This document shows, in pieces, positions 1,596-48,512 of a DNA stretch of 64,000 bases. The stretch lies in NCBI GenBank assembly GCA_021781965.1, contig JAJXVU010000009.1:806-64805 (forward strand), given 5' to 3'. Under the pieces are notes generated by a model. That model was not told where the DNA came from and did no database searches. It saw nothing but the letters and a program-made list of their open reading frames with translations. The stretch's first letter is position 1. Every line of letters begins with the position of its first letter. The position numbers and the translations under genes were made by a program. This stretch comes from Pseudomonadota bacterium (GTDB lineage: Bacteria > Pseudomonadota > Gammaproteobacteria > UBA1113).

Positions 1596-1720
1596 TGCAT
1601 TAAAGTATATCTCAGCCGCCCGCTCTCTAACACCCGCGGCTCGGAAAGTCGCGGCTCAGTTCATCCGTTTGAAACGGATCATCAACCGTTAGGGAGCGGA
1701 TGGGGAGAATAGTTATTCTT
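1596..1720. repeat. Dispersed REP-like repeat (copy B, composite) between the MFS gene and the carbamoyltransferase stop
   Basis: Contains cccgcggctcggaaagtcgcggctc, a perfect hairpin atccgttt-g-aaacggat, and ccgttagggagcgg, which is the reverse complement of the core ccgctccctaacgg. Confidence 0.6.
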
Positions 1721-3440
1721 TAACTACTAACACATCTTCCATGATCAAATACCGTAAATCACAACCAAAAAACATATTTAAAGCATCTTCTGGCGTACAC
1801 ACCATAGGCTCACCACGACGGTTTAAAGAAGTGTTTAATACCACGGCATTACCCGTTAAACGTTCTAAAGCACTGATCAACTCATAATAACGCGGATTGG
1901 ACTTTTGTGTCACCACCTGTGCTCGTATAGTACCATCTTCATGCACTACCTCAGGTATGCGCGCTTTCCATTCTGGTGCCACATCAAAGGTTATGGTCAT
2001 ATAAGGTGCAGGATGTGTGCTTTGTAAGATATCTTTAGCCACACTGTCCAATAGGCTGGGGCAAAAAGGCCGCCAACGCTCACGATACTTAATCTGTTGA
2101 TTGATTTTATCTGCGATGCCCGGAGCATTAGGACAACCTAAAATGCTGCGGTTGCCCAAGGCCCTAGGACCAAATTCCATACGCCCCTGAAACCAAGCCA
2201 AAGGTTCACCCTTAGCTAGCAATTTAGCCGCATACTCTACCGTATTATCCAATATTCGAAAGCTAGGTCTAGCGACGTGTTGCTCACAGGCCTTTACACA
2301 CGCTTCTGTTGTATAACTAGGTCCTAAATAAACATGCTCTAAAGGCTGTACCGGAATGGAATGTAAAGATGTAGCATAAGTAGCAGCGCCCACTGCCGTA
2401 CCGGCATCATTGGCTGCGGGTTGCACAAATAATTCTTTTAATCCGGGTAGCTGTAATAGCCTTTGGTTGAGCTTCACATTTAAAGCCACTCCACCGGCAA
2501 AACATAAACGCCCCGTTTCTTGAATAATATCACCTAAATAATGTTGTACTAAAGCAAGCACGCTATCTTCCAACATTTTTTGAATGCCTGCGGCATAATG
2601 TACATACGGTTCATCAATCTCGTCACCCACGCGCATGGGCCCTAGCCAATCGACCAACTTCGAACTAAAATAATAAGATTGTCCGCTTTGTTTATGGCGT
2701 CGTAAGCCTACGGTATTAACCAAACGCGTATTGACTCTAAATTTTTTGCCATTAAAATCCAATAAAGGCGATAGATCATAACGGCTAGCATCGCCATAGG
2801 GCGCCATGCCCATCACCTTAAATTCACCATCTAGCATTTCAAAGCCCAAATATTGGGTCATAGCACCATATAAACCGCCCAAAGAATCGGGATCGAAGAA
2901 TTCTTTGATCTTATGAATGTGACCATTTTCATCAGCATAGCCTAGAAAAGTAGAGGCATATTCTCCCTTACCATCTACTCCCAATATGGCTGCTCTACCT
3001 TTAAAACCGCTTAAATGATAAGCACTGCTGGCATGAGTTAGATGATGCTCTATAGGCATAAATTGTGTTTTTTGCAGATCAAAGCCCAAATCGGTTAAAA
3101 AAGAAAATACTCTTTTTTCATTGCGCTTATAGTGCCGATTACCATTAAATAAAGCATCTAAGGCTCTATCCGGAGCATACCAATAGCGTTTGGCATAGTG
3201 CCACCGCGCGGCCGTTCCTAAACCAATGGGAGCGAAAGGAAAAGCGACAATGTCTATATCTTTAGGATTTAGCCCCGCATCTTGCAAACACCAGCGCGTT
3301 GCTTCTAATGGCAATTTATTTTTAGCATGTTTATCGCGTATAAAGCGTTCTTCTTCCGCAGCACAAACCAATTTTCCATCCACAACCAACGCCGCTCCCG
3401 CATCGTGCGATACAGCCCCGGATAATCCCAAAATTTTCAT
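1713..3440 (-). CDS. Carbamoyltransferase (NodU/CmcH family)
   Basis: 575 aa. N-terminus MKILGLSGAVSHDAGAALVVDGKLVCAAEEERFIRDKH is typical of NodU-type O-carbamoyltransferases. ATGA overlap with the upstream kinase gene. Confidence 0.85.
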   Translation of the reverse strand: MKILGLSGAVSHDAGAALVVDGKLVCAAEEERFIRDKHAKNKLPLEATRWCLQDAGLNPKDIDIVAFPFAPIGLGTAARWHYAKRYWYAPDRALDALFNGNRHYKRNEKRVFSFLTDLGFDLQKTQFMPIEHHLTHASSAYHLSGFKGRAAILGVDGKGEYASTFLGYADENGHIHKIKEFFDPDSLGGLYGAMTQYLGFEMLDGEFKVMGMAPYGDASRYDLSPLLDFNGKKFRVNTRLVNTVGLRRHKQSGQSYYFSSKLVDWLGPMRVGDEIDEPYVHYAAGIQKMLEDSVLALVQHYLGDIIQETGRLCFAGGVALNVKLNQRLLQLPGLKELFVQPAANDAGTAVGAATYATSLHSIPVQPLEHVYLGPSYTTEACVKACEQHVARPSFRILDNTVEYAAKLLAKGEPLAWFQGRMEFGPRALGNRSILGCPNAPGIADKINQQIKYRERWRPFCPSLLDSVAKDILQSTHPAPYMTITFDVAPEWKARIPEVVHEDGTIRAQVVTQKSNPRYYELISALERLTGNAVVLNTSLNRRGEPMVCTPEDALNMFFGCDLRYLIMEDVLVVKE

Positions 3441-4879
3441 AATAAGCCAGCCTCTTTAAAAGCAGTAACAAAGGCTTGCTGCAATACAGGCCTGTTCCGC
3501 CAAATTTTTAAGAATCGTTTAACATCTTTGTTAAACGTGCGCGTAAATAATAACTTCCAAGGATACACGCGCAGATTATCTAAGCCCAATAAATACAACT
3601 TATCGCCACAAACCTGGAAATTCTCCGATTTTACATCGCGGTGACACAAACGATTTTGTTTTAAAGCATTCATCGTTTGTACCACTTTAGCAATCATCTG
3701 CTGTTGTTGTTCATGCAGATCGCAAAAAGAATGCAGATAATCCTGCAATGTTTGTCCGGGCACATATTCCATTACAAAATAATCGCGATGCTGCAACACT
3801 CCCCATTTTTTTTGTAATATGGCTATGGGCTTTGCGGTCAAAATCTGCAATGATTGCAAGCGATTTGCGTTTTGCCACGATAGTCCCGCATGTGTGTCTT
3901 TAATAACATGCTTTAAGCCATGCCACCAAGACCCGGCACTATATTGCTTCACCACCCAATCGCGTTCATTCCATTGATAACGAAAAATATTATTGGCTTT
4001 GCCGTGTTTTAAGATCTCAAAATAAGTTTCTGGTTGCTGTGTAAAATGATGAAACATGGTGGCTACAGATTCTTTTTGTTCTACAGCCGCAACATACTTG
4101 TAAGACCCTAATTTGCCTAGTGTAAAAGCACTGCATTCTCGCCATGCTTTAGACTGCGTCTTTCTTTGCCTGTACAGGCTTTTTTGAGTAATTTTCTTCT
4201 GCAATAGAGGCACCCAAGCCTCAGGAAATGCAAACAGTTGTGAGGCCTTTTCCATTAATATCGTCCACAATAGTTCTTGATCTAGTGTAGAAAATTGAAT
4301 AAAAAAGTCGGCTAGATTACTTAATTGTGCACGATACGACAAAAAACCGACCTTTCTAGCACATTTAACATCCATACCATCAATTATATATAATTGTTTT
4401 GCATCCGTTAAGATATTGTCTAAATGTAAATCGTTATGATATATACCTTGCTGATACATTTTTGCTAATTGTTGCAGCATAGAGGATAAACAGTCTTTTT
4501 TTTGCTGATCGTTCCAAAAACCCCACTCTGAAGCCACGGTATGAGTATTTTCTAAATAGGAGAGCACTAATAAAATACTGTCTTCTAACACGGAATATTC
4601 TAACACCTTGCTAGTGGCAATACCGCATTGCTGTAATAACTCCAGTCCTCTCATTTCGCGACGCACATGACGCAGACCTTGTTTGTCATAGAACAATTTA
4701 ACAATACTTTTTTGCCCTTGGTATTCTGCCAAAAAAGTAGCACGTCGTGCTGTTAAATCGCGCAGCATTTTTTGCAAGAAAATAGGTTGATCAATTGCAC
4801 CCCGAACCCAACACAAAGGCTCTTGCCACTGTTTTTGTCGCAACAAATCTAATAATTGTGCAGTGTTGATTTTATTCAT
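3437..4879 (-). CDS. LPS-kinase family protein with two tandem kinase-like domains
   Basis: 480 aa. N-terminal domain has YHNDLHLDNIL and IIDGMDV (Kdo/WaaP-type lipopolysaccharide kinase motifs). C-terminal domain has CHRDVKSENFQV (HRDxKxxN catalytic loop). Confidence 0.7.
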   Translation of the reverse strand: MNKINTAQLLDLLRQKQWQEPLCWVRGAIDQPIFLQKMLRDLTARRATFLAEYQGQKSIVKLFYDKQGLRHVRREMRGLELLQQCGIATSKVLEYSVLEDSILLVLSYLENTHTVASEWGFWNDQQKKDCLSSMLQQLAKMYQQGIYHNDLHLDNILTDAKQLYIIDGMDVKCARKVGFLSYRAQLSNLADFFIQFSTLDQELLWTILMEKASQLFAFPEAWVPLLQKKITQKSLYRQRKTQSKAWRECSAFTLGKLGSYKYVAAVEQKESVATMFHHFTQQPETYFEILKHGKANNIFRYQWNERDWVVKQYSAGSWWHGLKHVIKDTHAGLSWQNANRLQSLQILTAKPIAILQKKWGVLQHRDYFVMEYVPGQTLQDYLHSFCDLHEQQQQMIAKVVQTMNALKQNRLCHRDVKSENFQVCGDKLYLLGLDNLRVYPWKLLFTRTFNKDVKRFLKIWRNRPVLQQAFVTAFKEAGLL

Positions 4880-4895
4880 ATTTAATACAAACCCA

Positions 4896-5735
4896 TCATA
4901 CGCTACTCAACTTACCTGAAAAATTTTTCCATAAATTTTTTATTTTTCGCGATTGCCGTGGTTTGCTCAATCTAAGAGACATCCTTTGCCACAAAGCTTT
5001 TATGTCCTTTTTACTCGCACCGGCTCCCAGATAGGCCTTAATAAAACGCCATTTATCTGTGGCCTGGATTTTATTAATTCTGGTTCTGAATAAACTGTCC
5101 AGATCTATGCTTTCACAATATTGTTTAGAAAATCCATAGCGTAATTTTTCTAAATCAATGATACTGATTTTCACTTCATCATTATCAAGATTCAAAAAAA
5201 CATGCTTAAATACCAAGCAACAATGTTTATAATGATTCTGATGGATTTTGCCAACTACCCTGGCTAATTCATTGATAATGCGATTAAGCAACGCGCGTTC
5301 TGGAAAACCTGTTGCCTCCCATTGTTCAACCCATTCTTTTAGTGACTTATAGCCGGTGAGCTCTTCTGTCATTAAAATAGCTTCTTTACCGCGTTGGCTA
5401 TAGTAGATAGGAGTCACCGTAGGAATTTGATGTTTATTAAAACGGCTAATATTGCAAAATTCACGATTAAAAGTAGGTCTCCCCTTAATAGGATGTAAAA
5501 ATGAAGGGCACATATGTTTCGCTTGTCTTTTTAAAAAGACCGGCCTTTCTATTCCTGTAGTATCACGCAACACGATGCGTACCACGCCGCTCCAGCCGCC
5601 ACGTCGTCGATTAGGCTCTTCTACCCAACGTGTTTCAAAATTTTTGTTTTGCTCACAATTCCAAATATCCTCAAAAGAATTGAGGCCTTGTAGTCGTAAA
5701 ATATCTTCCCATTCTTTGGCTATATATGTTTTCAT
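4896..5735 (-). CDS. Lipopolysaccharide kinase family protein (InaA/WaaY/Kdo-kinase-like)
   Basis: 279 aa, conserved kinase-loop region (HQNHYKHCCLVFKHVFLNLDNDEVKISIIDLEKL), in LPS core locus context. Confidence 0.65.
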   Translation of the reverse strand: MKTYIAKEWEDILRLQGLNSFEDIWNCEQNKNFETRWVEEPNRRRGGWSGVVRIVLRDTTGIERPVFLKRQAKHMCPSFLHPIKGRPTFNREFCNISRFNKHQIPTVTPIYYSQRGKEAILMTEELTGYKSLKEWVEQWEATGFPERALLNRIINELARVVGKIHQNHYKHCCLVFKHVFLNLDNDEVKISIIDLEKLRYGFSKQYCESIDLDSLFRTRINKIQATDKWRFIKAYLGAGASKKDIKALWQRMSLRLSKPRQSRKIKNLWKNFSGKLSSV

Positions 5736-5769
5736 TGTAAATTCTTCTCCTTATAAATTTTAGGGTTCA

Positions 5770-7158
5770 CTATCCAACCCCCTTACGCACTGCTTTTTGT
5801 TGTAAGCTATGCGCTTTGCGCTCTACACGCTGCCATAATTTCTTTTGCAAACGATACGGCTTCCCGCCATTATAGCAGCGTATAAAATACAACACATCAC
5901 GGGCGCTAACACCATACTCAAACGCAGAATAATATAAAGCGCTTAAGTCTTTAATACGCCAGCGTCGGGAAAATCTTTTGTGTTGCATGCGATGCAAATC
6001 AATCAAATAATACTTATCGTCTTCATCCAATGCCTTTAAAAAATGACATAGATATAAATCCCTATGAAACCAACGTTCATCGTGTATAGCTTTAACATAA
6101 TTGGCCAATTGACGTATAAGCTTGTTTCTTTCGTTTCTAGAAGGCGGATTGTTACGCCACTCTTGACAATAGCTTTCCAGGCTCTCTGTTGCAGTCAATT
6201 CACGCGTCAATAAAAAAGATTGTCGTTTAAAGGAAAGCATTCCTCGTTCAGCAAAGGCAACCGCATCCAACGTAGGTAATTTTAATGATTTTAATTTAGC
6301 AATGGCTTGCCATTCCGTGCGCGCACTGACTATAGGCGAGCGTAATGATAACCAATTCTTTAGCCACTCATTAAAACCTATACCCTGATGCAACTTGGCA
6401 TAAAAACCTTGGCCCTCACACTCAAAACGCAGTGTTTTGCGCCCTTCTTTGTATCGTACTACTTCGCCTTCCAGCTCCATAATGCGATCAAATATCGCAG
6501 GCTCGCAGCCATAATGAGCCATAGCCGCATTGGCGCCAAAAGGTTTCAATAATTTTGGTTGCTCCAAATATTCTAATAAATAATCCCCGAAGCCGCCGCC
6601 TAAACTTTGCCCTCTTTGCAGAGGATGGATCTGTATGTTGGTTTGCGATTGTTCGCAGGTCTCTAAACTTAACCAATGCAAGCGACTCGCTGGCGTACGA
6701 TAATGTACTTTGATAGCCCGCAATACCATTAAGCTGGATGATACTACCTGGCAATGGCTAGTCATCGATAAAATGCTTCTTTCAAATTGTAGGCGTTGTC
6801 GATGGCGTGGTATAGAACGCCGTGCCCCCTGCACTAATTCCGCAATACAAGGTTCCTTAGCATAATAAATATCTAGTCCAGGAATAGCATTAAAGCCCAC
6901 CACGCAATCATATTGTTCTTTAATGCGCGCATCATGTACAAAACGTGCTAAATAAGCATATTGTCTAAAGAGAGGGACGCCTTGTTTTTTAATACTGTGT
7001 ATAGTAGCACCCTTAGGTTGATCGCCACGCCATTCTAATGTATAAATATCTACACTATGCCCTGCCTCTAAGCATTTATTAATTGTGTTCAAAAAATCGT
7101 GCTGCAGATCTTCGCCAAAAACATAGCTAAAAATAACAAAACATAATCGTTGCTTCAA
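5770..7158 (-). CDS. waaP: WaaP-like LPS core heptose kinase with an extra N-terminal domain
   Basis: 462 aa. The C-terminal half carries WFHRDLYLCHFL, matching the WaaP catalytic motif FHRDCYICHFL. ATGA overlap with the waaC stop. Confidence 0.65.
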   Translation of the reverse strand: MKQRLCFVIFSYVFGEDLQHDFLNTINKCLEAGHSVDIYTLEWRGDQPKGATIHSIKKQGVPLFRQYAYLARFVHDARIKEQYDCVVGFNAIPGLDIYYAKEPCIAELVQGARRSIPRHRQRLQFERSILSMTSHCQVVSSSLMVLRAIKVHYRTPASRLHWLSLETCEQSQTNIQIHPLQRGQSLGGGFGDYLLEYLEQPKLLKPFGANAAMAHYGCEPAIFDRIMELEGEVVRYKEGRKTLRFECEGQGFYAKLHQGIGFNEWLKNWLSLRSPIVSARTEWQAIAKLKSLKLPTLDAVAFAERGMLSFKRQSFLLTRELTATESLESYCQEWRNNPPSRNERNKLIRQLANYVKAIHDERWFHRDLYLCHFLKALDEDDKYYLIDLHRMQHKRFSRRWRIKDLSALYYSAFEYGVSARDVLYFIRCYNGGKPYRLQKKLWQRVERKAHSLQQKAVRKGVG

Positions 7159-8183
7159 GATGGAACCTCCTGCAATAACGATTGTAGTGTTTGCATGACG
7201 TAGTTATCACTTAAAGTATTGTAACAAGGCGGAGTTTCGCCCTCTTTCACCCAACGACATTGTTGTTGCAAACAAGGCGCACAATGATATTGCACGCTTA
7301 GATGCTGTTGATTGTGGCCGCGTGTGCCGGTTTTATTGGCATCCGTTGATCCATATAAAGAAAGGGTGGGCACTGACAGAGCCGCTGCTAAATGACCCAA
7401 GCCCGTATCCACAGCGATTACTGCTTGTGCATTGATGAGCTCTAATGCTATCTCACGCAAATTTAAGGGAGGTAATACCTGTCCATCACAGGCCTTTGCA
7501 ATCGCTTCCGCACGTTCCTTTTCAACGGTATTACCCCAAGGCAAGCGAATTTGATAACCGGCTTTTTTTAATTTCTGTCCTAAGGCTTGCCATTCTGGTA
7601 ATGGCCATAATTTAGTATCCCAAGTCGTACCGTGTAAGAATAGAATATATTGAGCAGATTGTGCTGACAAATAAGGATTAAAGAAAGCCTGTAAACCATA
7701 ATCGGCTTCCGTATTAGGCATAGGATAATGCAAAGCCTTAGCGAACAATTGCCGTACACGCTCTATGGCATGCGTTTGCCAATCTATAGCGTGACGATGA
7801 TGGTATAACCACGGTGCAACCGGATCGCGTGATGAACCCATAGCCAAACCATGTCTTTTCCCTTTGGCTACAAAAGCCATGAGCGCGCTTTTTAACAGCC
7901 CTTGAGCATCAATAATGATATCGTAGTGATTTTGTCTTAATTGCTTGTATACGGATTGCCAATGCCCTTGTTGCCAAGCTTGCCATGGTGTTTTGCGCCA
8001 TTTGCGAAACTCTATTTCTATAATGCGTTTGACGCCTTTATGCCAGCGCAAGGGTTCGCTGAAATTTTTTTCCACCAGCCAATCGACTTCTAAATCGGGA
8101 TATACGCGCAAAGCATCCGTCAATGCAGGCAAAGTATGGATGACATCTCCCAAAGAAGACGTTTTAACAATCAAAATTTTCAT
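7155..8183 (-). CDS. waaC: ADP-heptose:LPS heptosyltransferase I
   Basis: Internal start MKILIVKTSSLGDVIHTLPALTDA is the canonical WaaC N-terminus, so the ORF-track N-extension is rejected. The ATG at 8183 overlaps the waaF stop TGA (ATGA). Confidence 0.9.
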   Translation of the reverse strand: MKILIVKTSSLGDVIHTLPALTDALRVYPDLEVDWLVEKNFSEPLRWHKGVKRIIEIEFRKWRKTPWQAWQQGHWQSVYKQLRQNHYDIIIDAQGLLKSALMAFVAKGKRHGLAMGSSRDPVAPWLYHHRHAIDWQTHAIERVRQLFAKALHYPMPNTEADYGLQAFFNPYLSAQSAQYILFLHGTTWDTKLWPLPEWQALGQKLKKAGYQIRLPWGNTVEKERAEAIAKACDGQVLPPLNLREIALELINAQAVIAVDTGLGHLAAALSVPTLSLYGSTDANKTGTRGHNQQHLSVQYHCAPCLQQQCRWVKEGETPPCYNTLSDNYVMQTLQSLLQEVPS

Positions 8184-9217
8184 GCAGCTACCTCTGCCGC
8201 TGCCATGAGCTTTTGTAAAGATTGTAACACTTGCGATGGTGCGATTTGTTTTAAACAGTTTAGATGGCCCAAAGGACATTCGCGTTGAAAACACGGGCTA
8301 CAGGGTAAAGACAATTGCACTATGGCAACGCGCGAGCTTAATGGCGGTGTAAATGCAGTAGAAGAAGAGCCATAAATAGCGACCATGGGTTTATCCAGCG
8401 CTGCGGCTATATGCATTAAACCTGAATCGTTGGTAACCACAGCATCCACTGTAGATAATAAATCAACGGCTTGTTTGAGATCCGTACGACCACATAAATT
8501 ATCACAAGCTTGCGGCACCACCTTCATGATTTCATCGGCTAACACTTCGTCTTTTTTAGACCCCAGCAACCACACTGCGTAGCCTAAATCATGCAAATGC
8601 TGCGCTAATTCGCCGTAATAGTGTGTAGGCCAGCGTTTAGCCGGACCATATTCCGCACCCGGACACAAGGCTACTACTGGCTTATCATTGCTTAAACCCA
8701 GTTGTTGTTTTAATTGTACGGCTGCAGTGGTATCGCCCACTAAACTAGGATACGGATAAGGTTTAGATAAAACAGCGTTTTTTTCCAAGCCCAGGGCCAT
8801 GAAGCGTTCAATCATCAGTGGATATTTTTGTTTATCTAAAAAACGCATTTCGTTTAATAAGCCAAAACGCATTTCGCCCTTAAAGCCGCGGCGTTTTGCA
8901 ATGCGCGCTACCCAGGGAATGAGTGCTGATTTCCATGAATTGGGTAAAACGATAGCCATATCGTATTGTTCGCGGCGTAAGGCACGGCCTATACGCCAAC
9001 GGTCTTTGAGTCCTAACACACCATGGCCTAGGGGTAAAACATGGGCATGGCTGACCTCTGGCATTTTCTGCGCCACAGCCGCAGTCCAGGCCGGGGCTAA
9101 AATATGCAGCGATGCCATAGGATAGCGGCCCTTGAGTAATTTAAACAAGGTTTGAGCCATTACCATGTCACCAACCCAAGCCGGTGCGATTATCAGTATT
9201 TTTTTCATGTAAATCAA
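8180..9217 (-). CDS. waaF: ADP-heptose:LPS heptosyltransferase II
   Basis: MKKILIIAPAWVGDMVMAQTLFKLLK is the canonical WaaF/RfaF N-terminus (GT9 family). Confidence 0.9.
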   Translation of the reverse strand: MIYMKKILIIAPAWVGDMVMAQTLFKLLKGRYPMASLHILAPAWTAAVAQKMPEVSHAHVLPLGHGVLGLKDRWRIGRALRREQYDMAIVLPNSWKSALIPWVARIAKRRGFKGEMRFGLLNEMRFLDKQKYPLMIERFMALGLEKNAVLSKPYPYPSLVGDTTAAVQLKQQLGLSNDKPVVALCPGAEYGPAKRWPTHYYGELAQHLHDLGYAVWLLGSKKDEVLADEIMKVVPQACDNLCGRTDLKQAVDLLSTVDAVVTNDSGLMHIAAALDKPMVAIYGSSSTAFTPPLSSRVAIVQLSLPCSPCFQRECPLGHLNCLKQIAPSQVLQSLQKLMAAAEVAA

Positions 9218-10147: not shown

Positions 10148-11520
10148 TGTTTATTCTCCTTTTCTATACCTGCGTAAAAACGGTGAGCAACCCTATATCG
10201 TTTATAATACGGCAACAGTATGGCTGCAGCGACAATAAAACCACTGCCAAAGCCTAGGCGTAAAGCAATTGGGCCATAATGCATTACAATGCCGATAATA
10301 TAGCATGCTGGAATACCGACAAACCATAGACCGACAATCCCAATGAGCATCGGAAATTTAGAGTTTTCCATGCCTCTGAGCACATTCGTTAAGAGATTGC
10401 GGATGGCATCAACAAACATAATAGGGATAGATATGACCAACAGCCAATAGGTTAGCCGAATCAAGCTTGTGTTATTTGCATCATGCACATTCACAAACAA
10501 TGCCATCAGTTGTAGTGGCATAATAAATATTATCACTGCAAACAGCGCAAATAATACTATGACTAATATAAACGCCGCCCTAAGATATTTTTCAATCAAA
10601 TGCTGATGACCACTTCCGCGGCTAGCAGCGGTCAAAATCGACAATGCTTGAGCAATGCCCATAACGATCATCACAGCAAAAATGGTATATTGCGACACAA
10701 TCTGTACACTAGCTAAAGCAATAATCCCTAAATAACCCATTATATAGGTGGATACCGTTATAGCCCCTAATTCGCCCAAGAACTGCAAACCAATGTGGAT
10801 ACCAATTTTATAAACTTGCTTAATTAAGCCCCAATCATATAGCTTTACGGGGTTAGAACATAGATAATGCCAGGCATAACTAAAGCGCATATAAATAACC
10901 ACCATAACCAAAACTATAAGCTGTGCGATCAGAATCGCACATGAGCTACCGGCTAAACCCATGTTGGCAGATCCCAGGATAAATGCATAACTGAGGCCAA
11001 TGATGAATGGTAGGAAAAAAAAGCTAAAAATCGTACTCACCATGGGTTTGCCAATTCCATTATAAAATTGCCCCGCTGTGGCACAAAGCATCGTTGGTAT
11101 GATGCTAAGGGCTGCATACTGAAAAAAATCAGCCGTTAATGCCACTATTTCTGGCGGTTGATTAAACAAGGATAAGATCTGACTGCCATGCCATAAAACC
11201 AGTGTTGCTGGAAGGCCTAAAATTAAGCAGAGCCAAAATCCACTCACTAAAGTATTCGCTACCTTTCCCTTATCACCACCCGCATGAAATTTACCAATTA
11301 AAATACTCACCGAGTAAAGGCTTGCAACCGTAAAAGCTCTTACCGTGATATAACTAATATTGGCAATAGCAAATGCAGCTAATTCGGGTTTACCCAGTTT
11401 CCCCAACATCATCGTAATAAAAAATGTGGGGATCACCCCCAGTAGATTCGTGGCACTGATCGGCACTGCGTAGTGGATGATGCGCTTTAATAATATGGGT
11501 AGAGATTCACTATGGTTCAT
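10144..11520 (-). CDS. MATE family efflux transporter
   Basis: 458 aa, 12 TM, NorM/DinF-like. Stop overlaps the gloB start (ATGA). Confidence 0.75.
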   Translation of the reverse strand: MNHSESLPILLKRIIHYAVPISATNLLGVIPTFFITMMLGKLGKPELAAFAIANISYITVRAFTVASLYSVSILIGKFHAGGDKGKVANTLVSGFWLCLILGLPATLVLWHGSQILSLFNQPPEIVALTADFFQYAALSIIPTMLCATAGQFYNGIGKPMVSTIFSFFFLPFIIGLSYAFILGSANMGLAGSSCAILIAQLIVLVMVVIYMRFSYAWHYLCSNPVKLYDWGLIKQVYKIGIHIGLQFLGELGAITVSTYIMGYLGIIALASVQIVSQYTIFAVMIVMGIAQALSILTAASRGSGHQHLIEKYLRAAFILVIVLFALFAVIIFIMPLQLMALFVNVHDANNTSLIRLTYWLLVISIPIMFVDAIRNLLTNVLRGMENSKFPMLIGIVGLWFVGIPACYIIGIVMHYGPIALRLGFGSGFIVAAAILLPYYKRYRVAHRFYAGIEKENKQ

Positions 11521-11532
11521 AATAGAACATCC

Positions 11533-12405
11533 CTACTGCCGTTGCAACCACTCGATGATCCCTGAGAAATCTTTATCCTGGCCACCTGCATCGCAAAACG
11601 CTTGATACAAATCACGCGCCTTATCGCCCAAGGGTGTTGCGGCAGTTACACTGTCGGCGGCATCTTCGGCTAAATTCAGATCTTTTAACATCATTTTGGC
11701 CATAAAGCCCGGTTCATAATTTTTGTTAGCAGGCGTATGCGGTAGAATTCCAGGCACGGGGCAATATTGTGTTAAAGACCAGCATTGTCCAGAAGCTTCC
11801 TTACAAATATCAAAAAAAGCTTGGGGTTCTAAGCCTAGCGCCTTGCCTAAATTAAACGCTTCACACACACCGATCATAGAAATACCTAATAACAGATTAT
11901 TGCAAATTTTTGCCATTTGCCCACAGCCAGCAAGACCCGCATGAAATATTTTTTTGCCCATGGCTTCTAAAATCGGTTTAACCGTTGCAAAGGCTTCATC
12001 GCTACCACCCACCATAAAGGTTAAAGTGCCTGCAGCAGCGCTGGCGGTACCGCCCGAAACCGGCGCATCCACACATACACCACCCTTTTGTGTAACCGCT
12101 GCATGTATGTCTTTTGCGGTTTGTACATCGATAGTGGAACACTCCATGTAGATGATCGCTTTAGGCGCGTGTGCTAGCAATCCCTTATCACCCAAATATA
12201 CCTCGCGTACATGCGCACCCGCAGGTAACATAGACACTACATAATCCACATCTTGTATAAGTTCGGCTAAACTTGCTGCTATTTTAACGCCTGATAACGA
12301 TACCGGAGTTACATCGTAAACGGTTAAGCTATGCCCTGCTTTAACTAGATTCACTGCCATAGGCCCACCCATATGACCTAAACCTATAAACCCTATTTTA
12401 GCCAT
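11533..12405 (-). CDS. mmsB: 3-hydroxyisobutyrate dehydrogenase
   Basis: MAKIGFIGLGHMGGPMAVNLVKAGH Rossmann N-terminus, 290 aa, HIBADH family. Confidence 0.85.
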   Translation of the reverse strand: MAKIGFIGLGHMGGPMAVNLVKAGHSLTVYDVTPVSLSGVKIAASLAELIQDVDYVVSMLPAGAHVREVYLGDKGLLAHAPKAIIYMECSTIDVQTAKDIHAAVTQKGGVCVDAPVSGGTASAAAGTLTFMVGGSDEAFATVKPILEAMGKKIFHAGLAGCGQMAKICNNLLLGISMIGVCEAFNLGKALGLEPQAFFDICKEASGQCWSLTQYCPVPGILPHTPANKNYEPGFMAKMMLKDLNLAEDAADSVTAATPLGDKARDLYQAFCDAGGQDKDFSGIIEWLQRQ

Positions 12406-12534: not shown

Positions 12535-14271
12535 TTATTCCACTACTTCTAAATGTTCAATCATCAGTTGCACATTGCGTTTGCTTTGATATTCATTCAC
12601 ATCCAATCTATACACGGCACGCACGCGTTCAGCGCGACGATTCGGCCATTCATCGGTATTAATATTAAAATAAATCGCATCTAAAACACGATGACTACCC
12701 GGAAAACCCAATTGCAATTTTAAATGTTTGGCGCCGACGATGCGTTGATTCAGTACATTAAACTCACCATCAAAACTGGGTTCCGGAAAAGCCTGTCCCC
12801 AGGGCCCGCCTTCACGTAATTGAGTCGCCATATCTAAAGTATATTCGTCTAAAGCCAATTCGCCATCGCTGTAATAAACGCCTTGCAGATCGTCTGCCGT
12901 TAAACACTTACCTATTTCAGCAGCAAAAGCAGCGCTAAATGCGGCAAAATCTTTTTCATTTAAACTTAAGCCCGCGGCCATTGCATGACCACCGAAACTG
13001 AGTAACACCCCCGGACAGTGTTTATCCACTAAATCTAATACATCGCGTATATTAACACCCTTCACCGAACGTGCCGAACCCTTTAATACCGTACCCTCAT
13101 TATGCGCAAAAGCAATCACCGGGCGATGATAGGCTTCCTTAATACGCGAGGCCAAAATACCAATAACACCTTGATGCCAGCTGCGATCGTATAAACACAA
13201 ACCCGCGGGTAGATCTTTACCTTCGCCTAAATGCAGAGCTTGAACGATTTGCATCGCTTGCAATTGCATGTCATCGCCTATTTGTTTGCGCTCTTCATTT
13301 AATAACGACAGTTGTTCGGCAATATGGCGTGCGTGATCGTGATCCTCTGTAAGCAAACACTCAATGCCCAAGGACATATCATCTAGACGTCCAGCGGCAT
13401 TTAAACGTGGGCCTACGCCAAATCCCAAGTCGGTCGCCACTAACTGATGTACGCTGCGGCCCGAAGCTTCTAATAAAGCACGTATACCCGGGCGCATACG
13501 CCCTAAACGCATACGTCTTAATCCTTGATGCACTAAAATACGATTATTGCGATCCAATGGCACCACATCGGCCACCGTGCCTAAAGCCACTATATCTAAA
13601 GCATGCGCTAAATTAGGCTCGACAATATTATTTTCTTGAAACCAATTTAATTCTCGTAAACGCGCGCGCAACGCTAATAATACATAAAAAGCAACGCCCA
13701 CACCGGCCAAAGCTTTGCTAGCAAAGTGGCAGCCCGGTTGATTGGGATTAATAATCACTTCCGCAGAAGGCAAAGTATCCCCAGGTAAATGGTGATCGGT
13801 GACCATGACCTTCATGCCCAATTCATGCGCTTTGGCTATGCCCTCGTGACTGGAAATGCCGTTATCCACGGTGATAATCCAATCCGGATTGCGTTCTTTA
13901 GCTACCAACACAATTTCCGGCGTTAAACCATAACCGTATTCAAAACGATTCGGTACTAAATAATTCACTTCTTGCAAGCCAAAAGAGCGTAATACCGAAA
14001 CTAATAACGCCGCACTGGTGGCGCCATCGGCATCGAAATCGCCAATGATCAGTACCCGCAATTGTTGTTGTAACATTTCCACCAAGTATTGCGTGGCAAG
14101 TTCTATATTCAGTAAATCGTGATAGGGTAAAAGTTGATTGAGTTCGTGATCCAATTGCGCCATATCCGACACATCGCGAGCCGCATAAATACGCTGTAAT
14201 AAAGGCGGTAAGTGATCCCCTAATTTTTGTTGGTTATTTTCATTGGCGTGCCTGCGCACAATCTTTGGCAT
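12535..14271 (-). CDS. recJ: Single-stranded-DNA-specific exonuclease RecJ
   Basis: 578 aa with DHH/DHHA1 motifs (VLIIGDFDADGATS, VTDHH) and an OB-fold C-terminus. Confidence 0.9.
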   Translation of the reverse strand: MPKIVRRHANENNQQKLGDHLPPLLQRIYAARDVSDMAQLDHELNQLLPYHDLLNIELATQYLVEMLQQQLRVLIIGDFDADGATSAALLVSVLRSFGLQEVNYLVPNRFEYGYGLTPEIVLVAKERNPDWIITVDNGISSHEGIAKAHELGMKVMVTDHHLPGDTLPSAEVIINPNQPGCHFASKALAGVGVAFYVLLALRARLRELNWFQENNIVEPNLAHALDIVALGTVADVVPLDRNNRILVHQGLRRMRLGRMRPGIRALLEASGRSVHQLVATDLGFGVGPRLNAAGRLDDMSLGIECLLTEDHDHARHIAEQLSLLNEERKQIGDDMQLQAMQIVQALHLGEGKDLPAGLCLYDRSWHQGVIGILASRIKEAYHRPVIAFAHNEGTVLKGSARSVKGVNIRDVLDLVDKHCPGVLLSFGGHAMAAGLSLNEKDFAAFSAAFAAEIGKCLTADDLQGVYYSDGELALDEYTLDMATQLREGGPWGQAFPEPSFDGEFNVLNQRIVGAKHLKLQLGFPGSHRVLDAIYFNINTDEWPNRRAERVRAVYRLDVNEYQSKRNVQLMIEHLEVVE

Positions 14272-14272
14272 A

Positions 14273-14887
14273 TCATTGCGCCTTTTTGGCGAAATGTAGT
14301 GCCAAATACAGCGTTTGTAGCGTAGTAATCGCAGCTAAAATCACCCAAAATGCCAGTACATAACCGGCCCAAATCGGTTGAAAAATACTAACCAGTATTA
14401 CCAACAACATTAAAGGATACATCTCGCCACGATTTAAGATCCGCCAAATCTTCGTTTCGTTGGGATCGTCCACCGCTTTTCTATGATTAGCATAAGCGAC
14501 TTCAAAAGACGGCATGATGGCACAAAATACGGCGAGCGCCACCCAAGAACCCAAGGACCAATAGGGCGTGATGATCGCCAATTTAAAATAAGCAAAAATC
14601 ACAAAGAAATCGACGAAGCGATCTAGGCTACCATCTAGAAAAGCACCGTAATGGCTACTCTTTTCACCAGCCCTAGCGACTGCGCCATCGATAACATCAA
14701 ATAGGCCTGCTAAAATAAAAAAAATGAGGCCTGTAATTGCATAAGCATGGGCAATAAACACATAACCTAAAACACCCAGCAGCAAGGTTATCCATGTATA
14801 CGCATTGGCACTGAGTGGAAAACGCAACATGCGCCGTCCCAATTGCTCGGAAGTGCGCTGCCACCACACACATTTTTCTTTGATCAT
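14273..14887 (-). CDS. CDP-alcohol phosphatidyltransferase family protein
   Basis: DGAVARAGEKSSHYGAFLDGSLDRFVD matches D-G-x2-A-R...G-x3-D-x3-D. Start set at the internal MIKEK, 1 nt after the dcd stop. Substrate (PC, PG or PS type) unresolved. Confidence 0.7.
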   Translation of the reverse strand: MIKEKCVWWQRTSEQLGRRMLRFPLSANAYTWITLLLGVLGYVFIAHAYAITGLIFFILAGLFDVIDGAVARAGEKSSHYGAFLDGSLDRFVDFFVIFAYFKLAIITPYWSLGSWVALAVFCAIMPSFEVAYANHRKAVDDPNETKIWRILNRGEMYPLMLLVILVSIFQPIWAGYVLAFWVILAAITTLQTLYLALHFAKKAQ

Positions 14888-14888
14888 T

Positions 14889-15455
14889 CTAAGTCCTTGG
14901 TAGAGTAACGCCCACTTGCCCTTGATATTTACCCTTTCTATCGGCATAAGAAACGGCGCACTCTTCATCCGATTGTAAAAAGATCATTTGCGCAATGCCT
15001 TCATTGGCATAAATTTTTGCAGGCAGCGGTGTGGTATTGGAAATTTCCAAAGTCACATGTCCTTCCCATCCTGGTTCTAATGGTGTCACATTAATGATTT
15101 GCCCACAACGCGCATAAGTGGACTTCCCCAAACAAATGCACAATACATCGCGCGGAATACGAAAGTATTCGACAGTACGTGCTAAGGCAAATGAGTTCGG
15201 CGGAATGATACATACATCTGTTTCTATATCCACAAAGCTATTTTCGTCAAAAGCTTTAGGATCGACTATGCTGGAATTAATATTCGTGAAAATTTTAAAC
15301 TCCCTTGCACAACGCACGTCATAACCATAGCTGGAAGTACCGTAAGAAATAATGCTGTGGCCATCTGTTTGACGTACTTGTTCGTTACAGTAAGGCTCTA
15401 TCATGCCATGGGTTTGGCTCATATCCAGTATCCAACGATCCGCTTTAATACTCAT
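14889..15455 (-). CDS. dcd: dCTP deaminase
   Basis: [12 protein letters not shown]... with about 190 aa after trimming the ORF N-extension. Dcd family. Confidence 0.9.
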
Positions 15456-15479
15456 AGTAAATATCTCCTCTTCTTTCAA

Positions 15480-15601
15480 TAAAAGCCCATATGGACTCAG
15501 TACTCACTTCGTTCGCACTTCGCCCTTCGGGCGCACTGGCGTGCGTCAAAAATGTTCGCCGCGCTTCGCGCTTTTCGCGCACATTTTTTGGGCGCATCGT
15601 C
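15480..15601. other. GC-rich structured intergenic element between dcd and apbC (multiple short hairpins including gccc-ttcg-gggc and gcgc-ttc-gcgc)
   Basis: A local GC spike of hairpin-forming sequence in an AT-rich genome, downstream of the apbC stop. Confidence 0.3.
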
Positions 15602-16684
15602 TTATTCCACTACAATTTTGGCAAAACGCCGTTTCATTGGTGCGGCACGTAATGCCAAGCGCGCTGCCATTTTAACAGCAATGTGTTGATACAATTGTGC
15701 AATCTCTGATTTGGGCTCGGCTACGACCAAAGGCACACCGGCGTCACAAGCGCGGCGAATGTCGGTATTCAAAGGTAAGGCGCCCAGCAGATCTAAGTCA
15801 AACATTTCTGCCATACGCTTCCCACCCGCTTCACCGAAAATCGCATCTACATGCTGACAGTTCGGACAATGATAATACGCCATATTTTCCACTACGCCTA
15901 ACAGCGGTACGGCTACCTTCTTAAACATGCTCACTGCTTTTTGTACATCTAGCAACGCCAGGTCTTGGGGCGTAGTGACTATGACTGCTCCCGAGACTGG
16001 AACTTTCTGTGCTAAGGTCAGTTGTATATCGCCCGTACCGGGGGGCATGTCTATAAGCAAATAATCCAGTTCATGCCATAGCGTATCGTATAATAGTTGT
16101 TGCAAGGCGCCGCTGACCATCGGTCCACGCCATATAACGGGCGTTTGGGCACTGTCGAGTAAATAACCTATGGACATAGATTGTACATCGTATTTGAGCA
16201 TGGGGATTAATGCCTTACCTTGCAGTTGTGGCTTTTCCGTAATCCCCAAAAGATTCGGTTGGTTAGGACCATAGATATCTGCATCTAGAATACCCACCCG
16301 TGCTCCTTCTGCGGCCAGCGCTAAGGCCAGATTGGTCGTAACCGTTGATTTCCCTACTCCCCCCTTTCCAGAGGCAATAGCGATGATATTTTTGACTTGA
16401 GGCAACGTCTTAGCCCCTACTGGTGTGTCCATTGCAGCTACCGTACTTTGCCATTTCCACTCTAAGCTATTGATTTTTAAATTATTATCTTTAGATAAGT
16501 CTTGCAAAATGGCGTTTTGCCACAGTAAATGAATTTTATCGTGTACAAAGGGTAACACAAGCGTAATGGTATAATGATTTTCTTTATTTTCAATGACTTG
16601 GACCCAAGTATCGGGAATGCTTGTGATAACCAAGGCGGCTGCTAATACATTTTTTACACTATTGGCTATGGTGGAGACAGACAT
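15602..16684 (-). CDS. apbC: Fe-S cluster carrier ATPase Mrp/ApbC
   Basis: 360 aa with the P-loop GKGGVGKST, a CxxC pair (CPNC) and ParA/Mrp family features. Confidence 0.9.
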   Translation of the reverse strand: MSVSTIANSVKNVLAAALVITSIPDTWVQVIENKENHYTITLVLPFVHDKIHLLWQNAILQDLSKDNNLKINSLEWKWQSTVAAMDTPVGAKTLPQVKNIIAIASGKGGVGKSTVTTNLALALAAEGARVGILDADIYGPNQPNLLGITEKPQLQGKALIPMLKYDVQSMSIGYLLDSAQTPVIWRGPMVSGALQQLLYDTLWHELDYLLIDMPPGTGDIQLTLAQKVPVSGAVIVTTPQDLALLDVQKAVSMFKKVAVPLLGVVENMAYYHCPNCQHVDAIFGEAGGKRMAEMFDLDLLGALPLNTDIRRACDAGVPLVVAEPKSEIAQLYQHIAVKMAARLALRAAPMKRRFAKIVVE

Positions 16685-16744
16685 AAAAACCCCCGTTTTG
16701 AAAACAGGGGTATCTTATCATGTTTATAGAGAAATGTGCTCAGC

Positions 16745-17308
16745 CTAGTAAGGTAATATCTGTACCTTAGTACCGATGGTCACGAAGTTATCGCTTAACC
16801 ACCCTGCATCGCTAGGATGCATGCGTACACAACCATGGCTAGCATTGTAATTAGGTACATCACCTGAACCATGTAGAGCATAACCGCCGTTAAAGAACAT
16901 GCAGTACGGCATTGGCGCACCCCCTTCAGGTATAGGGAATATTGTGGATTTACAATCTGCCCCACCCTTACGATATACATTAAAAGTACCTGCTGGTGTC
17001 TTACAAGGTTGACCTATATCAGGGCAAAAATCCCTACCTGTTGAAGCCGGCCCTTCGGCCACTAGCACTCCATCAGGGCCGTAAGCACCCCAAGCATGCT
17101 CATTTGGATCAACAATAATGATCTTGCTACCTGTAGCCGGACGCGTAGCTGGAAATTGATACCGTGGTGCTTGTGGCACGGCTTGTGCTGCTATGTTACT
17201 GCCATTCACCGTAGGCACGGATTGATTGAAATCCGATCCATTATTCATCGCACAACCTGCAAGCATTACGCTAGACAGCAGTAATACTGCTTTAATTGGT
17301 AGTTTCAT
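16745..17308 (-). CDS. L,D-transpeptidase (YkuD domain) lipoprotein
   Basis: Catalytic motif HGSGDVPNYNASHGCVRM. Signal peptide with the lipobox LAGC at the internal start MKLPIKAVLLL. Confidence 0.8.
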   Translation of the reverse strand: MKLPIKAVLLLSSVMLAGCAMNNGSDFNQSVPTVNGSNIAAQAVPQAPRYQFPATRPATGSKIIIVDPNEHAWGAYGPDGVLVAEGPASTGRDFCPDIGQPCKTPAGTFNVYRKGGADCKSTIFPIPEGGAPMPYCMFFNGGYALHGSGDVPNYNASHGCVRMHPSDAGWLSDNFVTIGTKVQILPY

Positions 17309-17499
17309 GATACGTCCCCTTAATGAAAAACTTTTTATTATAATCATAAGGATAGCACGCTTTAGGGCCTTACGTTATCTTTTGAATCGAATTTTATCAG
17401 ATGTTCATTTTGCGTTAATATAGCAAAGTGGATGATTTTACTAGGTTTTGATCGCTTTTTAAAGAGGCTGCATAAATATTAATTCCAGGTAATTATGGG

Positions 17500-38916: not shown

Positions 38917-39273
38917 AATTTATACCCCTATCTTCGCATTATATTTACCCAGCAACGCGACTGCAAAATAATATTATCTTACTCCAATGAGATCTTACTT
39001 TCTATAACCTATTGATTTTTAAGTAACAGAAAGTGATAAATGTGCTACTTATGCTATTTAGCATTTGACAATCATAAAGCCATAAAAAACCGAAAAGTCA
39101 TGCCTGGCGCCCTTCCAATAATAAGTCATTCCATGATATTATTAGAACTAACGGACAATGTGGTGAACTTTTTACGTTATAGTATACACATATTGAGCAC
39201 AATAATAAAGATTTTATTACAATGGTCAGGGCATATGGCTAGTGATAACATTATTACTGTCTTATTTCAATGA

Positions 39274-41787: not shown

Positions 41788-42024
41788 TATTTTATCAAGC
41801 TTGCTGAGTTGTATAGAAAAGATACATGGCTGTCAACCAATATTCTGCTGCTCACAAACAAATAATTAGAACTATGGGTTATTACAGTGGTTACCTCATT
41901 GTTAATCAATGAATTTGTGTAGACTATTTGATCCCTAAATAAAGAATATATTGTCCACAAAGTCGCCATAATCCCTGCTCAGTAACATTCTCGACGTAGC
42001 TGGCTTTCTACCCCCAATTTTGCG

Positions 42025-48361: not shown

Positions 48362-48512
48362 GATTACTATCCTCTTTATAATTCGGCAAAAAATTAACAA
48401 GGATTCTAACACAAAAATAATATAAATCAATGGGATGATGGAAAAAAGCTCTTTTCTGAAGTAAACTCCCCCGCCTTTTACAGAGGAGTTCGGATAAATT
48501 ACTGCTATATTA

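Follow-up and report, generated by a model that had tools for sequence, protein, structure and literature searches.

The inner core of the Pseudomonas aeruginosa PAO1 lipopolysaccharide (LPS) is encoded by the gene series waaF-waaC-wapG(waaG)-waaP-wapP-wapQ-PA5006-wapO, whose functions have been described (PMC3147165, PMC8005017). The assignment of PA5005 (wapO) to 7-O-carbamoylation of heptose II has itself been called putative (PMC8005017). It was not possible to inactivate wapP in P. aeruginosa, and the inner-core kinases of this organism are regarded as drug targets (PMC3147165). P. aeruginosa WaaG (PaWaaG) is divided into domains spanning residues 1-165 and 170-355; the C-terminal domain makes most of the UMP contacts, and the nucleotide contacts of the N-terminal domain, Phe13 and Arg18, lie in the Gly-rich loop after strand 1 (PMC10579960). 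In the E. coli enzyme, residues 103-132 form the membrane-interacting segment (PMC7558818). Core phosphorylation in E. coli has a known, unexplained dependence on waaG (Yethon et al. 2000, as cited in PMC10579960).

The window analyzed here, a 64-kb stretch of DNA taken as a whole, comes from an uncultured freshwater gammaproteobacterium. Positions 1713-9217 carry six co-oriented genes on the minus strand, forming one operon for inner-core LPS synthesis and decoration. The limits of all six open reading frames (ORFs) were checked, and the features are as follows.

8180-9217, minus strand: waaF, heptosyltransferase II; ORF from TTG 9217, likely start ATG 9208, 342 aa
7155-8183, minus strand: waaC, heptosyltransferase I; 342 aa from ATG 8183, listed ORF reaching GTG 8294
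5770-7158, minus strand: ORF of the 462-aa fusion protein, comprising the next three features
6649-7158, minus strand: WaaG/WapG-derived N-terminal Rossmann domain, aa 1-170 of the fusion (phmmer, Foldseek)
6514-6648, minus strand: relic of the WaaG C-terminal (donor-binding) domain, aa 171-215 (one strand and one helix)
5770-6513, minus strand: WaaP (RfaP) heptose-I kinase domain, aa 216-462 of the fusion (NF011703, PF06293)
5736-5769, minus strand: scar of a deleted wapP-type kinase gene, 34 nt (DNA alignment with relatives)
4896-5735, minus strand: wapQ ortholog, 279 aa, Kdo/WaaP family (PF06293, E 4e-36)
3437-4879, minus strand: PA5006 ortholog, tandem double kinase, 480 aa (BLASTP, alignment)
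1713-3440, minus strand: wapO (PA5005) ortholog, O-carbamoyltransferase of the TobZ/NodU family, 575 aa (PF02543 and PF16861)

An operon with the same gene order was found in nine independent contigs or metagenome-assembled genomes (L001-L009), of which L001 re-reads the window's own contig and L002-L009 are eight other loci; L010 denotes the P. aeruginosa locus. Because the operon recurs in this way and dN/dS lies between 0.03 and 0.16 across all six genes, the genes are real and not chance ORFs. Translational coupling had been proposed throughout the operon by a reading made from the sequence alone. It holds for three of the five junctions, waaF/waaC, waaC/fusion and PA5006-like/carbamoyltransferase, where 4-nt overlaps are present: the waaC start overlaps the waaF stop, and the TTG start of the fusion overlaps the waaC stop. 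The other two are spacers of 34 nt (fusion/wapQ) and 16 nt (wapQ/PA5006-like). The three kinase motifs quoted in the sequence-only reading, FHRDLYLCHFL, YHNDLHLDNIL and CHRDVKSENF, were all located in the translations. A Pfam scan placed PF06293 in the 462-aa and 279-aa proteins and both carbamoyltransferase domains in the 575-aa protein.

Orthology was assessed by reciprocal BLASTP against the fetched P. aeruginosa locus and by a neighbor-joining tree. The result was one-to-one orthology for each of the six genes. Order and orientation agree with PA5012-PA5005, as the sequence-only reading had held, and the tree together with the reciprocal best hits resolves the kinases as WaaP, WapQ and PA5006 orthologs. 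WaaF is 53% and WaaC 46% identical to the P. aeruginosa protein, each as reciprocal best hit. Both heptosyltransferases score well above their equivalog cut-offs (TIGR02195, 474 bits versus 135 for WaaF; TIGR02193, 341 bits versus 185 for WaaC), and WaaF matches PF01075 with E 1e-72. The gene calls of L001 give 342 aa for each, in agreement with the likely ATG starts.

The C-terminal part of the 462-aa protein is a WaaP-type kinase. It matches PF06293 (E 3e-42) and the RfaP model NF011703 (264 bits versus a cut-off of 170), and it is 41% identical to PaWaaP, again as reciprocal best hit. Compared with the PaWaaP structure 6dfl (E 3e-51), the modeled domain superimposes with a TM-score of 0.80 (target-normalized) and an rmsd of 2.6 Å. 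H365-R366-D367, D387 and K255 are invariant in the alignment. ATP-dependent phosphorylation of heptose I at O-4 is predicted for this domain.

The N-terminal extension of this kinase is the N-terminal half of WaaG/WapG, whose donor-binding half has been lost. By phmmer, residues 5-164 of the fusion match residues 4-167 of PaWaaG (8b5q) with E 1.5e-18, and Foldseek aligned the modeled N-domain with 8b5q and with 2iv7 at an rmsd of 1.4 Å over ∼160 columns. The extra N-terminal domain that had been noticed on the WaaP homolog thus exists, and it accounts for waaG, which had seemed to be absent from the synteny, since its N-terminal half sits in the WaaP fusion according to phmmer, alignment and Foldseek alike. 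In comparison with 45 full-length WaaG-WaaP fusions, against which the deletion was mapped, ∼170-200 residues of the donor-binding domain are absent. In the AlphaFold2 model, the relic retains a strand (176-179) and a helix (186-198), with pLDDT of 80-94 in ten-residue blocks over residues 171-200; the fusion as a whole is modeled with a pLDDT of 90.9 and a pTM of 0.80. In the alignment with the full-length fusions, the first Glu of the EX7E motif is replaced by Gln, and the second Glu is deleted with the rest of the donor domain. The Pfam scan yielded no PF00534 match in the 462-aa protein. The donor-contact loop YFPFGGLQRDF, conserved to at least 91% in the 45 full-length fusions, is variable in 11 truncated proteins (e.g. 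VFGEDLQHDF and DSREDFQHDF). Judged from its sequence, the 462-aa protein is not a functional WaaG, having neither the C-terminal domain nor the UDP-sugar site. The donor-binding half is lost, and therefore no WaaG-type sugar, the first of the outer core, should be added by the fusion protein.

The truncated form is kept at 460-462 aa in ∼10 uncultured relatives, down to 67% identity. Of 55 positions highly conserved in the full-length fusions, 26 are still present in the truncated proteins, and the equivalent of E. coli WaaG segment 103-132 is retained in the stump. Where dS was unsaturated, dN/dS was 0.07-0.10 for residues 1-170, 0.05-0.11 for residues 171-215 and 0.06-0.08 for the kinase domain. 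With a dN/dS of about 0.08, the WaaG stump is thus held by purifying selection to the same degree as the kinase domain.

The second lineage-specific change concerns wapP. In six relatives (L004-L009), a wapP-type gene lies between the fusion and wapQ. It is complete at 249 aa in L004-L007, ∼245 aa were matched in L008, and the copy in L009 is cut by the contig end. The L007 gene (11389-12138) encodes a protein 34% identical to PaWapP (E 5e-39, reciprocal best hit). In the window, a WapP ortholog between waaP and wapQ is absent; the 34-nt scar that remains preserves the 3′ end of the wapP-type gene, which bears the ribosome-binding site of the next gene. DNA alignment showed that the window and L003 keep wapP scars of different length. 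The gene was excised in this strain, and recently. The sequence-only reading had counted three kinase paralogs as a parallel to Pseudomonas; three orthologs are indeed present, but the Pseudomonas set numbers four, and wapP is the one deleted here. The heavily phosphorylated core that was expected is therefore probably an overstatement for this strain.

The two kinase-like proteins downstream of the scar also have counterparts in P. aeruginosa. The WapQ-like protein is 32% identical to PaWapQ (E 1e-38 and 3e-39, reciprocal best hit) and occupies the same operon position. Proteins of the WapQ type lack the canonical catalytic Asp and carry a loop H-x-C-x3-K-H, which reads HCCLVFKH here and HGCFYPKH in PaWapQ. 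The 480-aa protein and PA5006 (492 aa) share 28% identity across 450 aa (E 1e-55, reciprocal best hit). It contains a Pkinase/RIO/Bud32-like stretch (60-193) and a Kdo/APH-like stretch (290-432), and the residues K61/D150/N155/D167 and K311/H413/D415/K417/N420/D434 are invariant in the alignment, so that both domains retain a Lys, a catalytic Asp/Asn and a metal-binding Asp, as expected for a tandem kinase. This double-kinase layout had been regarded as atypical; it is the standard PA5006 architecture. At E ≤1e-30 it is shared by 399 or more cluster representatives, which align over their whole length and mostly measure 460-500 aa. Even in P. aeruginosa, the roles assigned to WapQ and PA5006 are putative.

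The last gene encodes a carbamoyltransferase (PF02543, E 5e-49; PF16861, E 3e-66) that shares 65% identity with PaWapO along its full length of 575 aa (818 bits), with dN/dS of 0.03-0.05. Against TobZ (3ver) it scored ∼275 bits (E 1e-80), and with the NodU equivalog NF041651 it reached 172 bits versus a cut-off of 1000. The protein has the two Carbam_trans domains of the TobZ/NodU family; it is closest to WapO and falls below the NodU cut-off.

Taken together, the locus is probably a single inner-core operon orthologous to the P. aeruginosa cluster, with two lineage-specific changes and a predicted core that is truncated and less phosphorylated. The enzymatic steps are predicted from orthology at 28-65% identity. 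WaaC would transfer heptose I onto Kdo, and WaaF would then add heptose II. The WaaP domain would phosphorylate heptose I (O-4 in Pseudomonas and E. coli), and the WapQ-like and PA5006-like proteins may place additional phosphates on the core or help in doing so. The WapO ortholog would carbamoylate heptose II (O-7 in Pseudomonas) from carbamoyl phosphate and ATP, as TobZ does. The WaaG stump would serve as a non-catalytic accessory domain of WaaP, most likely by bringing the kinase to the inner membrane and to its acceptor, Hep2-Kdo2-lipid A, or as a structural need of the kinase. Docking is proposed because the stump keeps the counterpart of the segment with which E. coli WaaG interacts with the membrane; selection on the stump is evidence for some function, which may be docking. 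The core would be a phosphorylated and carbamoylated Hep2-Kdo2 without a WaaG-added sugar and without the WapP phosphate. The predicted product is a short, outer-core-poor lipooligosaccharide that ends near heptose II, is carbamoylated and carries fewer phosphates than in Pseudomonas. We offer only tentatively the more specific proposal that a "pseudo-glycosyltransferase", once an acceptor-binding domain and now put to a new use, docks WaaP on inner-membrane Hep2-Kdo2-lipid A, that the lipooligosaccharide of the clade ends at a carbamoylated, phosphorylated heptose II without outer core, and that natural strains can dispense with WapP.

The WaaG-derived part might instead be a functionless deletion leftover, kept only to provide the WaaP start codon and translational coupling. 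Such a leftover would fit the absence of the donor-binding domain, the free variation of the donor-contact loop and the fact that a start codon for the protein (TTG/GTG) is present only at its WaaG-equivalent N-terminus. However, a neutral leader of 215 residues would be expected to decay or shorten, whereas both of its parts show the dN/dS of the kinase domain, no indels occurred over ∼30% amino-acid divergence at a nearly constant length, about half of the conserved positions are retained, and the fold is predicted with high confidence. We consider a leftover quite unlikely. Split GT-B enzymes exist, as in Alg13/Alg14 and some bacterial capsule transferases, and the stump could be the Alg14/Alg13-like half of such an enzyme, with its partner encoded separately, a sugar still added to heptose II and the outer core not truncated. 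The retained N-domain fold and the many conserved residues would agree with this. Yet the loop of nucleotide-contacting residues (Phe13 and Arg18 in PaWaaG) is variable in the truncated clade, and tblastn searches that used PaWapH, the C-domain of PaWapG and four glycosyltransferase modules of full-length fusions as queries gave no donor-domain match at E ≤1, either in the window or across L002-L009. Within the 64-kb window, neither a donor-domain coding sequence nor another glycosyltransferase gene was found, and none of the other ORFs had a glycosyltransferase Pfam match. The search covered 64 kb of one contig and the syntenic flanks of the relatives, so that the rest of the genome may contain a separate WaaG-like or other outer-core transferase or another wapP; a split enzyme nevertheless appears quite improbable.

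A reading outside LPS synthesis would make the kinase-like genes protein kinases, Bud32/RIO proteins or aminoglycoside phosphotransferases, with the carbamoyltransferase acting on an unrelated small molecule. The 480-aa protein does match Pkinase, RIO1, APH and Bud32 models, some sources label it Bud32, and the carbamoyltransferase family includes antibiotic-tailoring enzymes. These model matches are far under the curated cut-offs, however, and for every protein the reciprocal best hit is the P. aeruginosa LPS-operon gene at the same position. The bit scores of the carbamoyltransferase rank WapO far above TobZ and NodU, and waaF-waaC directly precede the kinase and carbamoyltransferase genes in every relative. 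This reading is very improbable. Unrelated kinase families or a TobZ-type carbamoyltransferase would have spoken against the sequence-only reading; what was found are WaaP-family kinases and a close relative of WapO.

An inner-core operon with a WaaG-derived accessory domain on WaaP remains the preferred reading. Each gene that is present shows the Pseudomonas-type programme of inner-core phosphorylation and carbamoylation to be conserved in this unrelated freshwater organism, an uncultured gammaproteobacterium. Nature has run two experiments at the locus. In one, the WaaP kinase has kept just the acceptor-side half of WaaG; in the other, wild strains have lost wapP, to be set against the resistance of this gene to inactivation in P. 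aeruginosa (PMC3147165). The fusion also bears on the waaG dependence of core phosphorylation in E. coli and suggests a link between WaaG and WaaP at the protein level.

A search of a literature library found no description of a truncated or full-length WaaG-WaaP fusion. The full-length fusions, of 600-700 aa and from uncultured Gamma- and Betaproteobacteria, consist of a GT4 N-domain, Glycos_transf_1 and a Kdo kinase. They share the domain order and the kinase junction with the window protein, at 30-38% identity in the N-domain and 35-44% in the kinase; unlike them, the window protein has lost most of the donor domain, the second Glu of EX7E among it, and has a degenerate Gly-rich donor loop. 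It shares the N-terminal Rossmann domain with the WaaG enzymes of E. coli (2iv7/2iw1) and P. aeruginosa (8b5q) but lacks their C-terminal domain. The 575-aa protein has the same architecture of Kae1-like N-domain and YrdC-like C-domain as TobZ, NodU and CmcH but is by far nearer to the LPS enzyme WapO. Compared with PAO1, gene order and orientation are the same and the 4-nt overlaps similar, but of wapG just the N-terminal domain is left, as part of a fusion with waaP, the wapP gene found in relatives has been deleted here, and an MFS transporter gene follows wapO in place of the outer-core genes (wapH, PA5003-PA5001 onward). The locus is a variant of a known system, and neither the fusion nor the loss of wapP overturns the current understanding of it.

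The six genes of the LPS inner-core operon were assigned by family scans and compared with the corresponding locus of Pseudomonas aeruginosa (L010).

Genes of the operon, with family-scan results and P. aeruginosa counterparts
9217..8180, minus strand: waaF ORF; TIGR02195 474 bits (cut-off 135); 53% identity to WaaF, E 3e-128
8294..7155, minus strand: waaC ORF; TIGR02193 341 bits (cut-off 185); 46% identity to WaaC, E 2e-109
7158..5770, minus strand: 462-aa protein; PF06293 at residues 227-429, E 3e-42; RfaP equivalog NF011703 264 bits (cut-off 170); residues 217-460 41% identical to WaaP, E 2e-56; residues 5-173 28% identical to WapG residues 3-175, E 9e-21
5735..4896, minus strand: 279-aa protein; Kdo/WaaP family, E 4e-36; 32% identity to WapQ, E 1e-38
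4879..3437, minus strand: 480-aa protein; two kinase-like stretches; 28% identity to PA5006 over 450 aa, E 1e-55
3440..1713, minus strand: 575-aa carbamoyltransferase; both carbamoyltransferase domains; 65% identity to WapO over 575 aa, 818 bits

The scans bore out the family that the sequence-only reading had assigned to each of the six ORFs. The likely true starts of waaF and waaC are ATG 9208 and ATG 8183, each giving 342 aa and matching the source-contig gene call. Of the five junctions in the operon, three are 4-nt overlaps; at the other two, the genes are 34 nt and 16 nt apart, and the earlier description of all genes as translationally coupled thus holds only in part. Scans for promoters and terminators gave the same counts as shuffled sequence, and the operon limits were therefore not taken from them. 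No rRNA or other Rfam match was found in the 64-kb window.

For the comparison, P. aeruginosa WaaP residues 19-237 were rebuilt from a PDB alignment, and locus L010 was fetched through the protein cluster found in this way; the clusters of ten representatives of the PA5006 family did not lead to Pseudomonas. The gene order in L010 is waaF (345 aa), waaC (355), wapG (373), waaP (268), wapP (244), wapQ (252), PA5006 (492) and wapO (585), followed by outer-core genes. BLASTP in both directions and a neighbor-joining tree of single kinase domains gave clean one-to-one pairs between the window and P. aeruginosa. Membership of the kinases in unrelated families was rejected on this pairing with LPS-operon kinases. 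A TobZ- or NodU-type carbamoyltransferase was likewise rejected, as the window enzyme is far nearer to WapO than to TobZ (about 275 bits) or NodU (172 bits, cut-off 1000). The LPS assignment of the kinases and the carbamoyltransferase thus held against both alternatives that the earlier reading had itself raised.

On homology and modeled structure, the N-terminal extension of the 462-aa WaaP protein is half of WaaG. Residues 5-164 match P. aeruginosa WaaG (8b5q, residues 4-167, E 1.5e-18), and E. coli WaaG was also matched. In a confident AlphaFold2 model built with 65 homologs (mean pLDDT 90.9, pTM 0.80), the C-terminal part was superposed by Foldseek on PaWaaP 6dfl with a TM-score of 0.80 normalized to the target, and the N-terminal part on the WaaG N-domain at 1.4 Å over about 160 aligned columns. 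In PaWaaG, residues 1-165 and the cross-over helix 359-370 make up the N-domain, and seven of the ten UMP contacts come from the C-domain, residues 170-355 (PMC10579960). No Glycos_transf_1 domain was found by Pfam in the 462-aa protein. The closest tier in the homolog search contained ten proteins of 460-462 aa with 67-95% identity, and the next tier contained full-length WaaG-WaaP fusions of 600-700 aa with PF13439, PF00534 and PF06293. Alignment with the full-length fusions showed that the window protein is without most of the C-terminal Rossmann domain. A strand and a helix (residues 171-215) are left as a relic, where the first Glu of the EX7E motif is replaced by Gln and the second is deleted. 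The Gly-rich loop YFPFGGLQRDF, the site of the PaWaaG N-domain nucleotide contacts Phe13 and Arg18 (PMC10579960), shows conservation of 91% or more across 45 full fusions, and is degenerate and variable among 11 truncated proteins. Judged from its sequence, the WaaG half-domain, or stump, cannot work alone as a glycosyltransferase. An assembly artifact behind the truncation was ruled out because independent NCBI, ENA, JGI and Logan assemblies carry the 460-462 aa protein.

Full-length WaaG-WaaP fusions (600-700 aa; proteins P0011-P0068) are common in uncultured Gamma- and Betaproteobacteria. At one locus (L011, 10001-13361), such a fusion is directly followed by a PA5006-like gene, without wapP, wapQ and wapO and with several ankyrin-repeat genes around. 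A literature search on WaaG-WaaP fusions found nothing relevant.

Stump length is constant throughout the clade. Of 55 positions with 90% or higher conservation in the full fusions, the stump retains 26, including those in the equivalent of E. coli WaaG residues 103-132, which interact with the membrane (PMC7558818). In four comparisons with unsaturated dS, Nei-Gojobori dN/dS was 0.07-0.10 for residues 1-170, 0.05-0.11 for the relic and 0.06-0.08 for the kinase. Helix 186-198 of the relic was modeled by AlphaFold2 with ten-residue-block pLDDT values of 91-94. From the fixed length, the retained positions, the low dN/dS and the confident relic helix, we infer that the stump is a non-catalytic accessory domain for WaaP. 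A neutral leftover is disfavored, with the selection data against it. The stump could also be half of a split GT-B enzyme whose donor half is encoded by a separate gene. This reading is disfavored as well: the nucleotide loop is degenerate, and the C-domain of PaWapG, PaWapH and the GT modules of four fusions, used in tblastn against the window and L001-L009 (L001 is the window's own contig, L002-L009 are the eight other loci), gave no donor-domain sequence at E≤1. As an accessory domain, the stump would most likely either dock WaaP at the membrane and acceptor, or be an obligatory structural partner inherited from the fusion ancestor. Such a role fits the older observation in E. coli, ascribed to Yethon et al. 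2000 (cited in PMC10579960), that waaG mutation reportedly interferes with core phosphorylation.

A scan of one genome per species yielded seven related loci with 67-95% protein identity, all from MAGs of uncultured bacteria (Gammaproteobacteria/Proteobacteria), of which one or more came from a lake series. The identical operon is also present on the NCBI MAG contig DAIDTR010000001.1 (GCA_027457125.1) and on one ENA metagenome contig. Gene order is unchanged in the relatives wherever the contig reaches far enough. All six genes had dN/dS values of 0.03-0.16 when the window was compared with its two closest relatives. The L005 values for waaC and K3 were left out, their coordinates being off.

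In L004-L009, the fusion gene and the wapQ ortholog are separated by an extra gene, which is complete in L004-L007 (249 aa), matched over about 245 aa in L008 and cut by the contig end in L009. The L007 copy (11389-12138) and P. aeruginosa WapP are reciprocal best hits (34% identity, E 5e-39). In its place, the window (5736-5769), L001 and L002 have only 34 nt, consisting of the first few and the last roughly 30 bases of the wapP-type gene, and the ribosome-binding site of wapQ is thereby retained. L003 has a longer scar (11389-11480) of about 95 nt, whose 3' breakpoint differs and lies at a short GATT(A)CGA repeat. Distances among the window, L003 and L007 are nearly equal, nucleotide identity being roughly 92% in one half of the operon and 89% in the other. 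The different scar lengths and this near-equidistance indicate a recent loss of wapP, through either nested events or independent ones in two lineages. Ancestrally, the clade had all four kinases of the Pseudomonas set. Inactivation of wapP in P. aeruginosa was not achieved, and its product is thought to add the second essential phosphate on heptose I (PMC3147165). Purifying selection on the other genes persists in the strains without wapP.

The wapQ ortholog (4896-5735) is a mosaic, with "HKYYSIGSPFK" in L004 and L007 and "HMCPSxLHPIK" in the window, L003, L005 and L006. Between the window and L007, dS was 0.85 for this gene vs 0.3-0.48 for its neighbors. Together, the mosaic pattern and the raised dS suggest recombination inside the operon. 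The catalytic loop reads HCCLVFKH in the window protein (residues ~160-170) and HGCFYPKH in PaWapQ (L010, 11538-12296). WapQ-type proteins of both the window and P. aeruginosa are without the HRD catalytic aspartate, yet the metal-binding Asp of IDLEK is kept; they may be pseudokinases or use a different mechanism.

The double kinase had been described as atypical, which proved incorrect: PA5006 is itself 492 aa long, and its family has the same tandem build. The apparent rarity of the 480-aa protein was rejected, since the 14 relatives from a word-indexed search reflected a sensitivity limit. When 1.84 billion cluster representatives were searched exhaustively with HMMER, 2073 relatives were found, 399 of them at E≤1e-30. 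Of the best 150, nearly all have lengths of 460-500 aa, and their alignments run from about residue 30 to about 475. Across 19 diverse aligned members, PA5006 among them, a Lys, the catalytic Asp, an Asn and the metal-binding Asp are invariant in each half; the invariant residues are K61/D150/N155/D167 in the first half and K311/H413/D415/K417/N420/D434 in the second. The invariant catalytic residues in both halves and the uniform length indicate that the tandem architecture is a property of the entire family, whose members probably have two competent active sites. Some family members (P0199, P0205, P0214, P0239, P0270, P0304 and P0326) are 741-806 aa or 1126 aa long, owing to fusion, at one end or the other, with a further module of at least about 290 aa.

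Elsewhere, the window encodes a 632-aa ankyrin-repeat protein (21478-23376) and a 777-aa protein with DUF5621 (17500-19833). Such proteins are typical of host-associated bacteria, e.g. amoeba symbionts. As the sole clue to lifestyle or lineage, they hint at a host-associated lifestyle and at a Legionellales placement, which they are not sufficient to establish. A literature search on DUF5621 found nothing relevant. A 1414-aa NRPS-like protein (34672-38916) has formyltransferase, adenylation, carrier and thioesterase domains. The 33-39% GC and the GC-skew sign change around its gene (36000-42000) could mark a strand switch or an island gained by horizontal transfer. No Pfam match was found for the ORFs 24749-26200 (483 aa), 47786-48535 (249 aa) and 48513-50351 (612 aa). 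Just past the left end of the window, L001 has a called 1743-aa gene without a Pfam family (14016-19247).

By orthology, WaaC and WaaF would build Hep-Hep on Kdo, and WaaP would phosphorylate heptose I. The WapQ-like and PA5006-like proteins would add to phosphorylation, with exact roles that are unsettled even in Pseudomonas. The WapO ortholog would carbamoylate heptose II, the putative function of WapO (PMC8005017). No other glycosyltransferase genes were found in the 64-kb window, and no WaaG-type sugar is expected from the predicted products of the operon. An MFS transporter gene comes after the window operon, whereas outer-core genes come after wapO in P. aeruginosa. Taken with the stump, these features suggest that the core may be short. 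Orthology supports the phosphorylated, carbamoylated heptose core of the sequence-only reading, whereas "heavily" or triple phosphorylation is doubtful for the window strain. The predicted core would be Hep2Kdo2 carrying a carbamoyl group and one to a few phosphates, with neither GalN nor Glc on heptose II. The operon belongs to a known system, the inner-core operon of Pseudomonas type, here in a lineage that is new and uncultured. Two changes specific to this lineage deserve note: WaaP carries a conserved pseudo-glycosyltransferase domain, and wapP has been lost naturally.
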